A DNA stretch of 64,000 nt from Candidatus Freyarchaeum deiterrae (GTDB lineage Archaea > Asgardarchaeota > Jordiarchaeia > Jordiarchaeales > Jordiarchaeaceae): the NCBI GenBank assembly GCA_037305845.1, contig CP147778.1:1728001-1792000 (forward strand), read 5' to 3'. Below, one piece after another: positions 31,133 through 42,069 of the stretch. Every line of letters begins with the position of its first letter. Positions within the stretch are counted from its first letter, which is position 1. Position numbers and translations under genes: made by a program. Below the pieces are notes generated by a model. The model was not told the DNA's origin. It ran no database searches and saw nothing but the letters and a program-made list of their open reading frames with translations.

Positions 31133-33178
31133 GTGAATAACCCGGAATTTACGAACATTTTTTGTTTTATAGAGCTTGTTATTAGGTGGAAATTTTTGGA
31201 AACTGGTAAAAAAAGAATATTTGAAGTTGTAAAGCATGACGGACCTGGAAGAATAGGTAAAATCGATTTAATAAATAAAAAAATTGCAACCCCTTTACTT
31301 ATTCACGCTCATTTTCATCACATAAATTACAATTTCGAAAAAATTGAGATTTTGAATGTTATGCCTGATTCTTTAGAAGAACAATTTCATGATAATGTTT
31401 TTTTAACAAACTCTGCTAATCCTTTAATCTACCCTAATTTAGATCAAAATTTAGAAGATCAATTGAGGTTACACCCAAACGTTTTAACTGTTCCATGTGG
31501 CTCTTTTATAGAACTGGAAAAGAAAACTACTCAGAGTTTTTTTGACAATTTAATAAAAAATGCTATTTACTTTAGAGAAAAGGTTGGAAAAAGCCATCTC
31601 GCTGTTCCGGTTTTCTATTCAAAGTATTCTGACTTGTGCGATAATCAGATCAATAATCTTTCTCAAATCGGTTTTGACGTATATGCTCTGAAGAATCTAG
31701 GTGAGATTATAGGAAATCCTCGTCAACTAGTAGAATTTATTGTAAAGGTAAGGGAAAGAATTCAACCCGATTCCTTACTATATGTTCCAGGTTTAATTCA
31801 TCCTGCTTATTACCCTCATTTGATTTATTCTGGTGTGGATATTTTCGATACAACCCTCATGATACTGGAAGCAAGGAGGGGTAGCTTATTACTGGAAGAT
31901 AGATCAAAAAAAATCGGGGAATTAGTTGAGCTTCCTTGCAACTGTCAGGTTTGTGAATCTTACAGCGTATCTGAATTGATGGAAATGCCCCCCAGTGAAC
32001 GTTTTAATAAACTTCTGCAGCATAACATTCTCTTCGCGGCTTCCGTTTTAAAAAGAGTAAGATTAGACATAAGAGAAGGTTTTTTGCGAGAGAGAGTAGA
32101 GCTATCATCACATTACTCGCCTACACTAGCGGCGTATCTTCGAATTTTGGATAAGAATAATTTTGATTATCTTGAGGAGTACACTCCAATTGCCAAAAAA
32201 GGAGTTGCATACTGTATAGGACCAGAATCCTATCATCGACCAGAGATCGAGAGATTTAGAAAAAGAATTTCAGAACGCTATACTCCTATAAGCGGCATTC
32301 GAACTGTGATTATTTTACCCTGTTCCGCGAAAAAGCCTTACTCCCTCTCGCAATCTCATAGACGGTTTAGAGAAGTTATAAGGCGTGTTGGTAAAGGATT
32401 AATCCAAGAAGTTATACTCTCATCTCCACTGGGATTAGTTCCAAGGGAACTTGAACAAGTGTATCCTGCGGCTCATTATGATGTTCCTGTAACTGGTGAT
32501 TGGGACCAAGAAGAAATAGAAATAGCTTCAGTCTCTCTTTCTAAATATTTTGAAAAATTAGATAAAGAAACCGTATTAATAGCACATCTAGATGGTGGAT
32601 ACAAGCAAGCTTGTTTAAAGGCTTCTAATATATCAGGAAAAAAGGTAATATTCACCGACATAAATGGCAACGCAGCAGGAGAAAGTAGCTTATCCAGCTT
32701 GAAAAAAACCTTAGAAGAGTATGCTGACCTGTCGGGAACTAAAGAGACATCGAAAATAGACTCGTTAAGAAAAATTGTTGATTACCAATTCGGAATAGGC
32801 GCTGGAGTAAAATTGATCCCTAGCTATGCAGATGTGAAAAGAGACCGAGTGGGAAATGTAAAAATTCTGCTAGACAAACAATTAGTCGCCTCATTTAACC
32901 AAGCGTATGGTTTATTCAAATTAACTCTCAAAGGTGCTGAGAGCTTGTCCAATTTCGGATATTGGATAGAATTTGATGGGGACATAGTAAGTGGTACAAA
33001 TCTTTTCGCTCCTGGTGTTAAAGATGCAGATCCAAAGATTCGACCCGAAGACTTTGTACTTATTTATAATCGTTCAAAAGAACTAATTGCAGTGGGAACA
33101 TCCAACATGAGTGGTTTAGAGATGAGACACTCGAAAAAAGGCATCGCGGTTAAATTTACTGAGAAAAAGATGGAATAA
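31133..33178 (+). CDS. arcS: archaeosine synthase subunit ArcS (TGT-like fold plus PUA domain); start may be ~31196
   Basis: FEVVKHDGPGRIG, CNCQVC, LPCSAKKPYS.SQSH, YPAAHYDVPVTG.W, C-terminal PUA. Confidence 0.92.
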   Translation: MNNPEFTNIFCFIELVIRWKFLETGKKRIFEVVKHDGPGRIGKIDLINKKIATPLLIHAHFHHINYNFEKIEILNVMPDSLEEQFHDNVFLTNSANPLIYPNLDQNLEDQLRLHPNVLTVPCGSFIELEKKTTQSFFDNLIKNAIYFREKVGKSHLAVPVFYSKYSDLCDNQINNLSQIGFDVYALKNLGEIIGNPRQLVEFIVKVRERIQPDSLLYVPGLIHPAYYPHLIYSGVDIFDTTLMILEARRGSLLLEDRSKKIGELVELPCNCQVCESYSVSELMEMPPSERFNKLLQHNILFAASVLKRVRLDIREGFLRERVELSSHYSPTLAAYLRILDKNNFDYLEEYTPIAKKGVAYCIGPESYHRPEIERFRKRISERYTPISGIRTVIILPCSAKKPYSLSQSHRRFREVIRRVGKGLIQEVILSSPLGLVPRELEQVYPAAHYDVPVTGDWDQEEIEIASVSLSKYFEKLDKETVLIAHLDGGYKQACLKASNISGKKVIFTDINGNAAGESSLSSLKKTLEEYADLSGTKETSKIDSLRKIVDYQFGIGAGVKLIPSYADVKRDRVGNVKILLDKQLVASFNQAYGLFKLTLKGAESLSNFGYWIEFDGDIVSGTNLFAPGVKDADPKIRPEDFVLIYNRSKELIAVGTSNMSGLEMRHSKKGIAVKFTEKKME

Positions 33179-33180
33179 AA

Positions 33181-34248
33181 ATGTTTGAAGCCAATGATTC
33201 TGAATTAGTTAATAAGATAATTGAAATTCGTCGAAAAAATTTGAACAGATTTAGAAAGGATTTCAAAGAGAAACCTGTAAAATACTGGTTGGAAAAGGAC
33301 AGATTTTTGAACAAGATTGGGACTTCTTTAGTCGTTATTCTTGCCACGAGAGGTTGTAATTGGGCATTATCCAGCGGAGGGGGCTGCTCGATGTGCGGTT
33401 ACATTTATGATTCTCCCTTAACTATTCCAGATTCTGATTCTTTAATCAAACAATTTGATTTAGCGTGTAAAGCTAGCATACCGGTTAAAGACTCCTTGGC
33501 AATTAAGATTTTTACTTCGGGAAGTTTTTTTGATGAGAGGGAAGTCCCGAAATCCGCACAAGAAGCAATTCTAAAAAGAATAGTTATGGATAAACGGGTT
33601 GAAGAAGTAATTGTTGAAACAAGGCCAGAATATGTTAATAAGGAAATTTTAAAGGAATGCTGTGAGATTCTGGGAAAAATCCATTTTGAGATAGCAATTG
33701 GTCTGGAAACAAGCAATGATAATATTAGAAATAATTATATAAACAAAGGTTTTAAACTCAAAGACTTTGAGAGAGCTGTTTCCATAGCTAAGCACTCCGG
33801 AGTAGGCGTCAAATCCTACCTCCTCATAAAACCTCCATTTCTAAGGGAGAGAGAAGCCATAATAGATTCTACAAACTCTGCTATAGATTCTTTTAAAATG
33901 GGAGTTGATTCGGTGTCCTTTAACCCCTGTACAGTACACAAAGGTACTCTGGTGGAACATCTTTGGGAAATAGGCAGATACAGGCCTCCGTGGCTTTGGA
34001 GCATAATTGAAATCCTGAAAAATACCTCCGAAAAGTTAAATGACAAAATAAGAATAATCTGCAGTTTAGCTGGAATAGGAAGCGAAAAAGGCCCCCATAA
34101 CTGTGGAAAATGCGACGCGAGAATCCGTGAACTACTGAATGAATTTACATTAACTCAAAACCCCGAAGTACTATCCAATATTGAATGCGACTGTAAACAA
34201 GAATGGCTTGATTATTGCGAATCAGAGTTTATCTGGAACTATTTCTGA
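33181..34248 (+). CDS. archaeosine biosynthesis radical SAM protein RaSEA
   Basis: TRGCNW....GCSMCGY, KIFTSGSF, ETRPEY, GPHNCGKC; directly after arcS. Confidence 0.9.
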   Translation: MFEANDSELVNKIIEIRRKNLNRFRKDFKEKPVKYWLEKDRFLNKIGTSLVVILATRGCNWALSSGGGCSMCGYIYDSPLTIPDSDSLIKQFDLACKASIPVKDSLAIKIFTSGSFFDEREVPKSAQEAILKRIVMDKRVEEVIVETRPEYVNKEILKECCEILGKIHFEIAIGLETSNDNIRNNYINKGFKLKDFERAVSIAKHSGVGVKSYLLIKPPFLREREAIIDSTNSAIDSFKMGVDSVSFNPCTVHKGTLVEHLWEIGRYRPPWLWSIIEILKNTSEKLNDKIRIICSLAGIGSEKGPHNCGKCDARIRELLNEFTLTQNPEVLSNIECDCKQEWLDYCESEFIWNYF

Positions 34249-34368: not shown

Positions 34369-34905
34369 ATGAGTCCGGTAATTATGTTTCAAGATAAAAA
34401 GCCAAAAATTCATAAAGACGCGTATGTTAGCCCACAAGCAACTCTAGTAGGAGATGTCGAGGTCGGAGAATTCACAAATATCTGGCCAGGAAGCGTAATT
34501 AGGGGCGACTTTGCAAAAGTACAAATCGGCGCTTACACAAATATACAAGATGGATGCGTAGTTCACGCTCATACAGCGGATACTCCAGTTATTGTTGGAA
34601 ACTTTGTCACTGTTGGAAGCAATGTGGTGATGCATGGCTGTTACTGTGGAGACGCAGTTGTGATAGGAGACGGCGTAATAATATATGAAGGCGTGACCAT
34701 CGGAGAAGGAGCTTTTGTTTCTCCAGGATCGATTTTGGTACAAAACATGGTTATTCCACCCCGATTAACTGTCTCAGGCGCGCCAGCGAAGCAAATCAGG
34801 GAACTATCAAGGGAAGACATTACAAAACAAAGGGAAAGGGCTGAAATCATCGCAAGGGTATTCTCAAAACTCCGAAGATGGATACCTTCTGAGACGGCCC
34901 TCTAG
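34369..34905 (+). CDS. gamma carbonic anhydrase-like hexapeptide repeat protein
   Basis: IRGD, TNIQDGCVVH, MHGC; left-handed beta-helix repeats. Confidence 0.85.
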   Translation: MSPVIMFQDKKPKIHKDAYVSPQATLVGDVEVGEFTNIWPGSVIRGDFAKVQIGAYTNIQDGCVVHAHTADTPVIVGNFVTVGSNVVMHGCYCGDAVVIGDGVIIYEGVTIGEGAFVSPGSILVQNMVIPPRLTVSGAPAKQIRELSREDITKQRERAEIIARVFSKLRRWIPSETAL

Positions 34906-36729: not shown

Positions 36730-38004
36730 ATGAGTTTTTACGGTCCATATTTGATTCGAACTAGAAGCATAGATGTTGCATGGAGAAGCTGTATCAACAC
36801 AATTATTGAGAAGGGAATAAAACAAACAACTGAAGATAAAAGGCAAGAGACCAAAGAAACATTTTGTGCAACAATCCACATAAGTGATTGGCAAAGCGGG
36901 AAACTTGTTCCAACAAATTATATTGGACTAAGTGAGGATCTAATTCTCGAAAATTATATTCCACAGTACCTTAGTTCCGAAAGAGGAGAACACATATACA
37001 GCTATGGATGGGCAATGCGTAAAAGGTTCATGTTTAATCAATTAGACTACATCAAAGATCAGTTAAGCAGTGGAAAGAGTGTGGCATTCGCCCAATTCTG
37101 GAACCCCGCAACAGACATCACAAGCACAAATCCACCCTGTATAAATATAGTTCTTTTTCATAAGATAAATTCTAAAATTCACTCAACCATATACCTTAGA
37201 AGCAATGATATGGCAAGAGCCTACCCAGACGATGTTGCAGGTGTTTACACTGTATTTTTAACTGAGGTTTCGAGCAGATTTGGTGGAAAAAAGGCTATGG
37301 GCACCATAACTACAATCTCTGGATCTGCACACGTATATGAAACTTCTATCAACGAAATTAAACAAAGCTCTTTCGGCTCAATATCCGCTTCCAACTCTAA
37401 TCCAAAAATTAATGAAGAAAATTTGGCTGGACCGGTACTCTTCCGGTCGCACAATTTAAAAGGCCTTTTACACGAATTAGAGGTCAAGTTTCCTAAATAC
37501 TCCAAGCCTCAGGGAAAACAAAATTACTATCTATATTTCGGTTTCAAATTGGAAGAAATAAATCTAGAGTTAAAAGAATTTGAGAATCAAGCGGAAAAAA
37601 TTGTACATGGCGCAGAAAATCTCGGAAAAGCTCTAAGGTTCTATAAAGCTAAAACGGACGATGGAGAACCAGTAACAATTGATCAAATAGAATTGGCTAA
37701 AAGAAAATTAGAGGAATCAAATCAAAGCAGGAGAATAATTATTACGCCTAATAATCCTTGGATAAAAGGGTACGACCTAAATCCTTTAATTATACAATTT
37801 TTGTTAAGGCAAGGTCGCCTATTTACTTCCGTGCTTTTCGCAGATTACTCGATAAAACATATCCTGTCGGGAATTTACTTAATTAAGGCAATTCAAAATG
37901 AAATGCTGAATGGAAATAAATACAGTTTGGGGCCTATGGCGTTTTTCTTCATGCCCGCGAATAATGGCTCTGAAACTGTAGACTTCTCAGACATACTTAG
38001 TTAA
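36730..38004 (+). CDS. two-domain thymidylate-synthase-fold protein (catalytic N-domain plus degenerate C-domain)
   Basis: YSYG, FNQLDYI, WNP..D...PPC(137), LRSND(157-160), SAHVY. The second domain has DQIE...L.....SRRIII..NP and IQFLLR but no Cys or RSxD. Confidence 0.85.
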   Translation: MSFYGPYLIRTRSIDVAWRSCINTIIEKGIKQTTEDKRQETKETFCATIHISDWQSGKLVPTNYIGLSEDLILENYIPQYLSSERGEHIYSYGWAMRKRFMFNQLDYIKDQLSSGKSVAFAQFWNPATDITSTNPPCINIVLFHKINSKIHSTIYLRSNDMARAYPDDVAGVYTVFLTEVSSRFGGKKAMGTITTISGSAHVYETSINEIKQSSFGSISASNSNPKINEENLAGPVLFRSHNLKGLLHELEVKFPKYSKPQGKQNYYLYFGFKLEEINLELKEFENQAEKIVHGAENLGKALRFYKAKTDDGEPVTIDQIELAKRKLEESNQSRRIIITPNNPWIKGYDLNPLIIQFLLRQGRLFTSVLFADYSIKHILSGIYLIKAIQNEMLNGNKYSLGPMAFFFMPANNGSETVDFSDILS

Positions 38005-38293: not shown

Positions 38294-39025
38294 ATGTTTG
38301 CAGCTCCTGGATTAGGCTACGACCGAGCCATCACGATTTTTTCACCCGACGGTCGTCTCTTTCAAGTTGAGTATGCAATAGAGGCTGTACGTCGAGGTAC
38401 CACCGCTATAGGTGTGAGGTGTAAGGACGGCGTAGTGCTTGCGGTAGAAAAACGTGTGTTAGCTCTCCAGGATCCCGAGAGCGTAGAGAAAATATTTGTC
38501 ATTGATGCGCACATAGGAACCGCAATCGCCGGACTGACGGCTGACGCGCGTGTTCTGGTAAATCAAGCTAGAGTTCAGGCTCAGGTTAATCGTCTTACAT
38601 ATGATGAGCCTATTAATGTTGAAAGTTTAACTAGGTATATTGGTGACACTAAACAGATGTACACTCAACATGCAGGTGTTAGGCCTTTTGGTGTTTCTTT
38701 CCTAATAGCTGGCGTAGACGAACTAGGCCCTAAACTATTTATGACCGATCCTTCTGGAACTTACTGGTCTTATTGGGCAGCTGCTATAGGTAGTGGGTCT
38801 CAGGCTGCTAAGGAAGTTTTAGAGAAGGAGTATAAGCAGATTATGGGTCTTGAGGAGTCTATTAAACTTTCTCTAAAGGCTTTGAATCAGGTATTAGAAT
38901 CTGAACTTGATCCTTCAAAAGTGGAAGTTGCAGTGGTAGACGTTACATCAAAGATTTTTAAGAGACTGTCTTCTAGTGAGGTTCAAGGTTATATCGATGA
39001 GATTAGAAAGTCTCGTAGTACTTAG
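38294..39025 (+). CDS. psmA: proteasome alpha subunit
   Basis: YDRAITIFSPDGRLFQVEYA, RPFGVS. Confidence 0.97.
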   Translation: MFAAPGLGYDRAITIFSPDGRLFQVEYAIEAVRRGTTAIGVRCKDGVVLAVEKRVLALQDPESVEKIFVIDAHIGTAIAGLTADARVLVNQARVQAQVNRLTYDEPINVESLTRYIGDTKQMYTQHAGVRPFGVSFLIAGVDELGPKLFMTDPSGTYWSYWAAAIGSGSQAAKEVLEKEYKQIMGLEESIKLSLKALNQVLESELDPSKVEVAVVDVTSKIFKRLSSSEVQGYIDEIRKSRST

Positions 39026-39027
39026 GA

Positions 39028-39756
39028 ATGATAGTTATGTCTATGCGCGGCGATAAGTGGGTTGATTTAGGTGACACTGTAGTAGCTCGTTTAGAGACCC
39101 ACGGTGAAAAATTTGAGATTCTTGTCAATCCCAATAAGGCATGGGAGTATCGCCGCGGTCAAAATATTGACCTATCTGAGATACTAAAAAGTTATGACAT
39201 CTTTGATGATGCACATAAAGGTCTTAAAGCAACAGAGGGAAAACTGCTAGAAGCCTTTGAAACAACAGACATAAATAAAATTGCTCCGATTATACTAAAA
39301 AAGGGATTTATACAACTCACTACGGAACAGCGTAGGGAGATGACTAATAACAAAAGAATGCAGATAATTAACATTCTTGCCCGTAATTGTATTAATCCTC
39401 AGACAGGCCTTCCTCATCCCCCAGCAAGAATCGAACGAGCTATGGAAGAGGCGAAGGTTTCAATCGACTTATGGAGAAGCCCCGAGGAGCAAGCAAAAGA
39501 TGTATTAAAAATGATTCAGCCAATAATACCAATAAGAATGGAACTCTTAAAACTGGCTGTAAAATTTCCACCGGACTATTCCGGTAAGGGATATAGCATC
39601 GTGGAACGTTTTGGAACCGTAACTAAGGACGAATGGCAGAAAGACGGTTCCTGGATTGCTATGATGGAAATTCCTGCCGGGCTTAGGGGTAAGCTCATAG
39701 AAGCGTTAAATAACCAAACTAAGGGAAAGGCAGAAGTAAAATTCATTAAAGATTGA
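39028..39756 (+). CDS. ribosome maturation factor SBDS
   Basis: GEKFEILV, QLTTEQRR, PHPPARIERAM; superoperon context. Confidence 0.95.
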   Translation: MIVMSMRGDKWVDLGDTVVARLETHGEKFEILVNPNKAWEYRRGQNIDLSEILKSYDIFDDAHKGLKATEGKLLEAFETTDINKIAPIILKKGFIQLTTEQRREMTNNKRMQIINILARNCINPQTGLPHPPARIERAMEEAKVSIDLWRSPEEQAKDVLKMIQPIIPIRMELLKLAVKFPPDYSGKGYSIVERFGTVTKDEWQKDGSWIAMMEIPAGLRGKLIEALNNQTKGKAEVKFIKD

Positions 39757-40448
39757 AAGGTGGTTTATCTTTGTCATTACATTTTAAAAATAGGAAAATA
39801 GTAGTACCCGGGGAGTTACTTGCCGAGGGCGCATATAAACCCGGCGAGGGAGCCTTCAGAGAAGGTAACTATATTTACTCCTCCGTAGTGGGCTTGGCGG
39901 AGGCTAAAGGTAAAATTGTAGAAGTTGTTGCTTTTGAGGGCGCATATATTCCAAAAGTTGGTGATGTAGTTATAGGAAAAGTTGAGGACGTAAAGATGAC
40001 TTCATGGCGAATTGATATACATTCACCATACCAAGCCACAATGCATCCGGTAAACGTTTTTGAACGACGTATGGATACTATGAAAGACGACCTCCGCCGA
40101 TACTTCGACGTGAAAGACACACTGGTTGCTAAAATAATGTCCTTTGACCGAACAAAGACTCCTGTGCTTACCGTAAGAGAGCGTGGTCTCGGTAAACTTC
40201 AAGGCGGATATCTGGTAGAAATGCTACCAACTAAAATCCCGCGTTTGATCGGTCGTAAGGGTTCAATGATAAATATGATTAAAAAAGAAACTAGATGTCA
40301 GATTACTATCGGCCAGAACGGGATAATTTGGGTCTCTGGCAAGAGTTTCGAAGAAGAAGAGCGAGTTATTAAAGCTATAAGACAGATTGAACGAGAGGCT
40401 CATACTCCTGGTTTAACTGATAGGATTAGAGATTTAATTCATAAGTAA
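39753..40448 (+). CDS. rrp4: exosome RNA-binding subunit Rrp4
   Basis: VVPGE, YIPKVGDVVIG, PRLIGRKGSM, GQNG.IW. Confidence 0.95.
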   Translation: MKGGLSLSLHFKNRKIVVPGELLAEGAYKPGEGAFREGNYIYSSVVGLAEAKGKIVEVVAFEGAYIPKVGDVVIGKVEDVKMTSWRIDIHSPYQATMHPVNVFERRMDTMKDDLRRYFDVKDTLVAKIMSFDRTKTPVLTVRERGLGKLQGGYLVEMLPTKIPRLIGRKGSMINMIKKETRCQITIGQNGIIWVSGKSFEEEERVIKAIRQIEREAHTPGLTDRIRDLIHK

Positions 40449-40470
40449 ATTTTGTTAGGTGAGTGAGTAA

Positions 40471-41247
40471 ATGGAAGAACCTCATATTTCCTCCCAAATT
40501 AAACTAATAGCTGAAGATAATTTGAGACTTGACAAAAGAAAATTAGATGAACTTCGACCAATTAAGTTGGAAGTTGGAGTTCTCTCAAGAGCTGATGGCT
40601 CTGCGTATATCGAACAAGGAAGAAGTAAGATTCTTGCAGCGGTTTACGGTCCGCGTGAACTACACCCTCGCCATCTTGCACAACCTGACGAGGCTTTACT
40701 GCAATGTATTTATAGAATGGCTACCTTCTCTGTGGAAGAGAGGAAAAGCCCAGCGCCATCACGTAGAGAAACAGAACTTTCTAAGGTCATAACCGAATCT
40801 CTCGCCCCCGCGGTTTTTCTAAAATATTATCCGAGATCGTCCATAGATGTTTATATACAAGTAATCCAAGCCGATGGGGGAACCAGATGTTCAAGTATAA
40901 CAGCCGCTTCCTTAGCCTTAGCAGATGCCGGTATCCCATTACGTGATTTAGTAGCGGCTTGTGCCGCAGGCAAGATAGATGGAAAAGTAGCTCTCGATTT
41001 GAGTGACATTGAGGATAAAAGCGGGGAAGCAGACTTACCTGTTGCTATAATGCCAAGAAAAAATTTGATTACACTAATACAGATGGACGGGTTTTTGACC
41101 AAGCAAGAATTTGTCGAAGCCTACGAACTAGCTGTAAAGGGTTGTCAAAAAATTTACGACATGCAAAGAGAAGTTCTCATACAAAAGTATATTAGTATTC
41201 AAGAGGAGTTCTCAGAAGAAGAAAACGAACCAGATAATGGAGGTTAA
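40471..41247 (+). CDS. rrp41: exosome subunit Rrp41
   Basis: [26 protein letters not shown]. Confidence 0.95.
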
Positions 41248-41250
41248 AAA

Positions 41251-42069
41251 ATGCCTCACAGTCTTATTACGGAAATTGAATCAAAGTACATAAGATCACT
41301 TATGGGTAGAGAAAGCAGAGTTGATGGCCGCGGATTGAAGGAGATGCGTCCAATCACGATTGAATACGGAATAGTAGAGAAGGCTTGTGGGTCAGCCAGA
41401 GTAACTATAGGTAGCACAAAGGTTATTGTTGGAGTGAGCGCAGAGGTTGGAACACCCTTCCCTGACACCCCTAACGCGGGGGTTGTGACATGCACCGCAG
41501 AATGTTCACCGATGGCGTCTCCCTACTTTGAACCAGGCCCACCCAATGAAGACTCTATCGAATTAGCAAGAGTTGTTGATAGAGGCATAAGGGAATCTAA
41601 AATGGTAGACGTAGATAAACTCTGCATAATCCCTAATGAAAAAGTGTGGATTCTCTTCGTAGATATTTATGTTATTGACCACGGAGGAAATCTATTCGAC
41701 GCCTCCTCTCTAGCAGCTGTCAGCGCTTTACTTACAACTAAAATTCCAAAAATTGAAGTAGAGGATGGAAAGGTAAAAAAACTTAATGAAAAAACACCCC
41801 TTCCAGTGAAAGACATACCAATTTCCTTAACTTTCGCAAAGATAGATGAACAACTATGTGTAGATCCTATATTAGAAGAAGAAAACGTTATGGACGCTAG
41901 AATTACTATAGTTTACGATCAGGGTGGCAACATTGTAGCTATGCAAAAAGGAGAACGAGGGGCATTAACTACCTCGGATCTTTACAAAGCTGTAGACTTG
42001 GCGGAAAATATGTCAAAAGAAATTAGAGAAAAATATATTTCCCCCATTTTGAAAAAGGAGGCCTCCTAA
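41251..42069 (+). CDS. rrp42: exosome subunit Rrp42
   Basis: [37 protein letters not shown]. Confidence 0.95.

Follow-up and report, generated by a model that had tools for sequence, protein, structure and literature searches.

A two-domain thymidylate synthase homolog with reciprocally divided active-site motifs is encoded next to an MtrA-MtrH fusion in Asgard archaea

We analyzed a 64,000-nucleotide stretch of the Candidatus Freyarchaeum deiterrae chromosome (contig CP147778.1, positions 1,728,001 to 1,792,000; hereafter the window, in whose numbering coordinates are given) for the gene at positions 36730-38004 of the forward strand and for its neighborhood. This open reading frame (ORF) is intact, with an ATG at 36730 and a stop codon at 38002-38004, and encodes a 424-amino-acid (aa) protein related to thymidylate synthase (TS). 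The host genome is closed and 100% complete (3.58 Mb, one contig), and the records of relatives carry the labels Jordarchaeia or Freyarchaeia. Immediately before the ORF lies a gene that encodes a fusion of MtrA and MtrH (MtrAH). The product of the ORF is probably a ThyA-family pseudo-heterodimer made of a single chain, with one composite active site; it is the only TS candidate of its genome and forms a module with MtrA-MtrH.

The full-length AlphaFold model of the protein had a predicted local distance difference test score (pLDDT) of 90.2 and a predicted template modeling score (pTM) of 0.92, and structure comparison found the TS alpha/beta fold in both of its halves. The TS family PF00303 matched residues 88-212 only (E = 9e-11; 41.9 bits, above the gathering threshold of 24.3). 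The archaeal TS equivalog TIGR03283 spanned residues 8-209 (E = 3e-28) with a second, weak stretch in the C-half (E = 1.7e-4), and its score of 114.9 bits fell below the cut-off of 174.55. By sequence and by model, the two halves of the chain are not equivalent, which does not match a symmetric ThyA-type homodimer with two equivalent sites.

Conservation was read from an alignment of 24 relatives that were 38-86% identical, and E. coli ThyA was added in a further alignment. The invariant residues of the N-half include C137, R157, S158, D160, H201 and Y203, and this half brings together in one pocket the catalytic Cys, the RSxD motif (R157-S158-N159-D160) and the HxY motif (H201-x-Y203). R157 and D168 stand at +20 and +31 from Cys137, a spacing identical to that of C146, R166 and N177 in E. 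coli, as judged from the alignment with E. coli ThyA and from HMMER alignments to solved TS chains. The N-half (residues 4-224) matched TS-family structures with Z-scores of 19-22 over ~200 aligned residues. The place of E. coli R126/R127, which we set by the ungapped register from W124 (W133 in E. coli), is occupied by S117-V118, and an Arg/Lys pair was conserved there in no relative.

The C-half has the opposite composition. It retains D310, Q319, S333-R334-R335, TPNNP, N351-P352 and Q356-x-L358-x-R360, and its stretch IDQ..K..SRRIIITPNNP aligned with the TS motif DQ...SRRxIxSxWNP, which corresponds to E. coli residues 108-134 and covers R126/R127. The position of Cys146 is taken by Leu or Ile, those of R166/S167/D169 are variable, and H207/Y209 are absent. 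SRR was invariant in all 14 C-halves compared, which are otherwise only 25-40% identical between classes, so its conservation goes beyond chance. In the PDB, a profile made from these 14 C-halves matched TS chains and no others (best E = 6.5e-4). When folded alone from its own alignment, the C-half gave a model with a pLDDT of 92, which we compared, with no Foldseek pre-filter, with 48,161 representative chains. All of the seven best matches belonged to the TS family (Z-scores of 12.3-15.7, alignments over 173-183 of 197 residues), and the first unrelated chain after them scored 5.7. Direct similarity between the two halves was marginal: BLASTP of the N-half against the C-half gave no match, and hhalign aligned them in register yet with an E of only 0.011. 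The case for duplication therefore rests on the fold match and the SRR motif, which together mark the C-half as a copy of TS that has diverged strongly. The features of the locus are collected in Table 1.

Table 1. Features of the two-gene locus, in coordinates of the window
Feature	Coordinates	Strand	Remarks
MtrA-MtrH fusion, 508 aa	35201..36727	+	stop codon 2 nt before TS start; PF04208 5e-36, PF02007 1.5e-56
N-half, residues 1-215	36730..37374	+	catalytic TS fold: PF00303, TIGR03283, Z 19-22, 47 invariant columns
Cys137 codon, nucleophile	37138..37140	+	spacing as in E. coli
Asp168 codon	37231-37233	+	E. coli Asn177 position
Inter-domain linker, about residues 216-235	37375..37434	+	pLDDT 65-80; 2 invariant columns, G234-P235 at its end
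C-half, residues 236-424	37435..38004	+	degenerate TS fold; Z 12.3-15.7; 10 invariant columns
S333-R334-R335 codons	37726..37734	+	aligned to E. coli S125-R126-R127; invariant 24/24 and 14/14

An original prediction, made from the sequence of the window, had assigned Cys, RSxD and HxY to the N-domain, with S117-V118 replacing the arginine pair, and S-R334-R335 without the other three motifs to a C-domain of TS fold. Its residue numbers were correct and the Cys, RSxD and HxY residues of the N-domain proved invariant in the relatives, whose alignment also confirmed the C-domain pattern; the TS fold of the C-domain was borne out by the structure comparison. The reciprocal motif loss between the halves is thus real. 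It holds across all 24 relatives and is repeated in P0042 and P0043, two distant proteins described below.

Since this pattern of losses is real and conserved, one composite site is its economical reading. The N-half would provide the pyrimidine-nucleotide site, with Cys137 as the nucleophile together with R157/S158/D160 and H201/Y203. The C-half, catalytically dead, would mainly supply the R334-R335 phosphate clamp, as the partner subunit does in homodimeric TS. The pattern of conservation agrees with this division: the N-half has 47 invariant columns, and the 10 of the C-half are confined to the arginine loop and the strands next to it. The pTM of the full-length model and the exact reciprocity of the losses both suggest that R334/R335 complete the N-half site. 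A single chain with one composite site would have no need to homodimerise. Such an arrangement has a parallel in E. coli TS, where the R126/R127 loop contacts deoxyuridine monophosphate (dUMP) bound in the opposite protomer; the enzyme is half-the-sites reactive, and an engineered heterodimer of wild-type and R126E-R127E subunits binds dUMP with normal affinity at the one site that works (PMC5981203).

We also considered whether the C-half could be merely a structural or regulatory appendage, with its arginines outside the N-half site and the phosphate bound by the N-half alone. The loop that carries the arginine pair is the least confident part of the C-half in the full-length model (pLDDT about 77), which would agree with such a role. 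However, SRR is held constant among C-halves as divergent as those above and also in the second lineage, the residues lost from the N-half are exactly those kept by the C-half, and the pTM indicates a confident, compact packing of the two domains. We find this alternative hardly credible. No single-chain TS dimer was found in the PDB, and the literature yielded no description of a TS pseudodimer.

The full two-domain TS was present in 18 of 400 Asgard genomes, distributed over five GTDB families. By named records, these belong to Jordarchaeia/Freyarchaeia, Atabeyarchaeia (two complete chromosomes) and Sifarchaeia. Two genomes of the same genus (G120 and G121) each yielded an additional hit with the profile of the two-domain TS. 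The remaining Asgard groups encode a single-domain archaeal TS of ~210 aa, a canonical TS of ~340 aa, or ThyX, and their single-domain TS keeps the arginine pair, Cys, RSND, Asn177 and HxY together. A search of 1.84 billion representative proteins with the C-half profile returned 27 hits only. As to stand-alone C-half-like proteins, only the short and probably truncated P0037-P0041 matched, and no search aimed at shorter proteins was made. P0042 and P0043 constitute a second two-domain lineage, rare and very divergent (n = 2, Logan assemblies), which shows the same reciprocal pattern of arginine pair and Cys and retains [ST]RR in the C-half. We built a maximum-likelihood (ML) tree from 54 TS domains. 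The N-halves from Asgard archaea formed one clade in it (support 100/99) that was joined by the N-halves of P0042 and P0043 (97/94). This grouping agrees with the architecture having arisen once, whether by duplication and then fusion or by the fusion of two paralogues.

The MtrA part of the neighboring fusion matched the MtrA structure 5l8x in the PDB (E = 1e-29), and the GH of its GHEPGQ motif was aligned at His91, which we take to be the cobalt ligand of MtrA. GHEPGQ was conserved in all eight Asgard MtrA-MtrH fusions compared. The MtrH part matched MtrH (8z9u) and MtgA (6sj8), a methylcorrinoid:tetrahydrofolate methyltransferase; it scored 192 bits with PF02007, above the threshold of 22.8, but only 185 bits with the equivalog TIGR01114, below the cut-off of 271. 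MtrA-MtrH lay directly upstream on the same strand in each of the 18 two-domain TS loci, at a TS identity of 38-79%. When the 400 Asgard genomes were searched for the fusion at E <= 1e-60, it was found in exactly the 18 genomes with a two-domain TS and in no others. By this operon and phyletic coupling, TS and MtrA-MtrH form a fixed two-gene module and probably work together. The outer neighbors differ by class, namely a gamma-carbonic-anhydrase-like gene and PsmA, an M24 peptidase and DUF1616, Nep1 and an aminotransferase, or NIF3. A conserved third gene of the operon was ruled out, given that the flanks change between classes.

These counts strongly support, at the level of genes, the link to a corrinoid protein that the original prediction had implied. 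Its further suggestion, that the dead half may serve as a docking surface for that protein, fared worse. A protein with a live site on one side and a dead one on the other would be suited to bind MtrAH 1:1, and the strict operon coupling would agree with a dead C-half pocket turned into a docking site for the corrinoid domain of MtrA. However, residues 363-424, which would make up much of the dead pocket including its RSxD/HxY part, contain not one invariant column, and all ten invariant columns of the C-half lie at 301-362, in the arginine loop and the neighboring strands. We therefore regard docking at the dead pocket as quite improbable. From the literature, a "novel MtrAH fusion" has been described in Atabeyarchaeia, Freyarchaeia and other Asgard archaea (PMC11291895; PMC9723677). 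The methyl branch of the tetrahydromethanopterin (H4MPT) pathway is present there, the acceptor and fate of the MtrAH methyl group are described as uncertain, and thymidylate is not mentioned (PMC11291895). We found no paper in which TS is connected to MtrA or MtrH.

PF00303 had one match in the closed genome, the ORF at 36730-38004. ThyX was found neither in this genome nor in any genome of the five two-domain families; it is common elsewhere in the phylum. Thymidine kinase was also not found in the host genome. As the sole TS candidate in a genome with no ThyX or thymidine kinase detected, the two-domain TS is very likely the organism's route to deoxythymidine monophosphate (dTMP). The genome encodes a deoxycytidine triphosphate (dCTP) deaminase, so that dUMP can be made. 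A clear deaminase of deoxycytidine monophosphate (dCMP) was not found in it, the only protein of the cytidine deaminase fold being a 144-aa TadA-like protein with a ComEB score of 27 bits. Dihydrofolate reductase (DHFR) was not found in the host genome either; dihydromethanopterin reductase was not searched for.

The residue that reads the base departs from canonical TS. The Asn that recognizes uracil (N177 in E. coli) is replaced by Asp168, which is invariant in the Asgard two-domain proteins, as is Arg163 at the position of Leu172. An Asp at the base-specificity position is a feature of TS-fold enzymes of the dCMP type: substitution of Asn177 by Asp switches canonical TS to dCMP, and the dCMP hydroxymethylase of phage T4 has Asp there. 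In a canonical TS, Asp168 would predict cytosine and not uracil, and this is evidence against dUMP as the substrate. We thus considered whether the protein is a C5 enzyme for cytosine nucleotides, that is, a methylase or hydroxymethylase of dCMP or cytidine monophosphate (CMP), with dTMP formed by deamination of 5-methyl-dCMP or with a product that serves another purpose. The invariance of Asp168, with Cys and Arg spaced as in E. coli, agrees with this, as does the Asn kept by the single-domain Asgard TS. In structure the N-half came closest to 9iqu, which is a dCMP hydroxylase (Z = 22.1), and to MilA, which is a CMP hydroxymethylase (Z = 20.6), with TS at ~19, although gaps of 2-3 in Z may reflect chain length. 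On the other hand, this is the only TS-family gene of a genome in which no ThyX or thymidine kinase was found, and that genome has a dCTP deaminase to feed dUMP and no clear dCMP deaminase. Moreover, the Asn177 position holds Asn in P0042 and Asp in P0043, so the two residues are perhaps interchangeable here. We consider a cytosine-specific enzyme unlikely. On the strength of the deaminases and of the Asn/Asp variation in the sister lineage we lean to dUMP as the substrate, while Asp168 leaves dCMP open.

The search with the C-half profile also led to a large family of fusions, with at least 355 clusters, in which a complete archaeal TS is combined with an MtrA-like domain and DUF4346 (e.g., P0046; L050:6938-8413; L049:1556-2920). 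Their records come from the DPANN groups Micrarchaeia, Aenigmatarchaeota and Woesearchaeota and carry no annotation beyond thymidylate synthase or DUF4346 protein; no paper that mentions DUF4346 was found in the literature. These fusions show a second, independent link of the MtrA fold to archaeal TS. Since their TS domain has the arginine pair, Cys, Asn177 and HxY all present, it is presumably homodimeric. In the ML tree the MtrA-fused TS was recovered as sister of the two-domain clade at 43/74, and in a quick tree at 88; with a support of only 43/74 we did not accept this relation. In two contigs a conserved ORF of 166-167 aa is located directly upstream of the DPANN fusion (L050:6434-6937; L049:1023-1523; 55% identical). 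Its product has a hydrophobic stretch at the N terminus and matched no family.

The pairing with MtrAH raises the question of the one-carbon (C1) donor. One possibility, which we favor but put forward only tentatively, is that MtrAH and the one-site TS constitute a corrinoid-mediated, redox-neutral methyl route to dTMP (or from dCMP, given Asp168). The MtrH domain would move the methyl group of methyl-H4MPT (CH3-H4MPT) to a Co(I) corrinoid on the MtrA domain, and the C5 carbanion activated by Cys137 would take the methyl group from CH3-Co(III) to give dTMP without oxidation of the pterin. The corrinoid route is attractive because of the gene pairing, the failure to find DHFR, the availability of CH3-H4MPT and the presence in the host genome of three corrinoid reductive activators of the RACo/RamA type (642-644 aa; C1:3105499, 878907 and 963568).

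A number of observations count against this reading. The pterin-contacting Asp169 has its counterpart in D160, whose invariance fits ordinary methylene-pterin chemistry. CbiC and CobS were not found in the host genome, so corrinoids would need to be scavenged. The lineages that share the operon are related, and the co-occurrence of TS and MtrAH is therefore partly inheritance. In the DPANN fusions, the MtrA-like domain shows CGxDLxK[ST]G where the His ligand motif would be, which makes corrinoid binding doubtful, and we know of no corrinoid metabolism in the DPANN carriers; for both reasons these fusions do not prove corrinoid use. Expression of mtr genes was weak as well (PMC11291895).

An alternative is ordinary ThyA chemistry on an unusual scaffold, in which 5,10-methylene-H4MPT would donate the methylene group and also act as the reductant. 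MtrAH would then adjoin TS only since both handle C1 units bound to H4MPT, or since MtrH hands over or recycles the pterin. The protein shows the conservation of folate-dependent TS at D160, in the Y90/Y92 region and throughout the dUMP site, single-domain archaeal TS occurs without MtrAH in other Asgard groups, and the cofactor of TS in organisms that use H4MPT is unknown (PMC9012536). What this chemistry leaves unexplained is the occurrence of MtrAH and the two-domain TS in the same 18 of 400 genomes, always adjacent while the flanks change, and the fusion of MtrA-like domains to TS elsewhere. The protein has neither the folate-wall residues W80/W83 nor the C-terminal lid, and no DHFR was found, with the reservation about dihydromethanopterin reductase given above. 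We hold methylene-H4MPT chemistry to be a serious contender without calling it probable, and about as likely as the corrinoid route.

At 31133-34248 of the window lie the archaeosine synthase ArcS (681 aa) and then the radical-SAM protein RaSEA (355 aa), an ordinary pair for tRNA modification, followed at 34369-34905 by a gamma-carbonic-anhydrase-like hexapeptide protein. Downstream of TS, at 38294-42069, is a cluster conserved in archaea, with genes for proteasome alpha, SBDS, Rrp4, Rrp41 and Rrp42, which is adjacent to TS only in the closest relatives.

Few enzymes have been studied as thoroughly as TS, a major drug target whose obligate symmetric dimer, with its shared sites and half-the-sites reactivity, has been debated for decades. 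A natural single-chain TS with one site would mean that evolution has fixed the one-site solution, and it would offer a clean system for study. The pairing of TS with MtrAH merges two questions, namely the C1 donor for dTMP in archaea that use H4MPT and the role of MtrAH in Asgard archaea. If the corrinoid route were true, it would be a third kind of thymidylate synthesis, one without a dihydropterin reductase, and the acceptor of MtrAH in non-methanogenic Asgard archaea would be identified. As this TS is very likely the only thymine route of three classes of Asgard archaea, the way it works matters for DNA synthesis in relatives of eukaryotes. The labels in the records, plain "thymidylate synthase" for the one gene and MtrAH as a methanogenesis-like marker for the other, may mislead metabolic reconstructions.

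Compared with known systems, the partner gene resembles the methanogen MtrA and MtrH, MtgA and MtaABC in that it likewise has a pterin:corrinoid methyltransferase barrel and a corrinoid domain with a His. It is unlike methanogen Mtr in that the Asgard fusion occurs without MtrB-G or MtrE. We found no precedent in the literature for a TS-fold protein as the second methyltransferase of a corrinoid system. The DPANN fusions differ from the Asgard module in both parts, since their TS domain is complete and they carry DUF4346 where the Asgard module has MtrH. The dCMP hydroxymethylase, the dCMP hydroxylase AfhB and MilA, which have Asp at the base position, were the best structural matches of the N-half (Z-scores of 20-22). 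However, these are homo-oligomers of phage or antibiotic pathways, whereas the Asgard protein belongs to a cellular genome with no other enzyme of the TS family.

Homodimeric ThyA, especially the short archaeal type of TIGR03283, shares with the Asgard protein the fold of both halves, the Cys, RSxD, HxY and Arg-Arg motifs and their spacing, and the short archaeal TS likewise has no C-terminal folate lid. The Asgard protein differs from ThyA in its two non-equivalent halves with one complete site, in Asp for Asn177 and Arg163 for Leu172, and in its obligate pairing with MtrA-MtrH. In design, the protein resembles the engineered one-site heterodimers of TS, in which the arginines come from one subunit and the pocket from the other, so that one site works. 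The E. coli pair described above is of this kind, and R178F and C198A subunits of L. casei TS reportedly complement each other in the same way, likewise as a one-site heterodimer. Those heterodimers are laboratory mixtures of two chains, whereas the Asgard protein occurs in nature with its two halves linked covalently, and reciprocal loss has fixed this arrangement in at least three classes of Asgard archaea.

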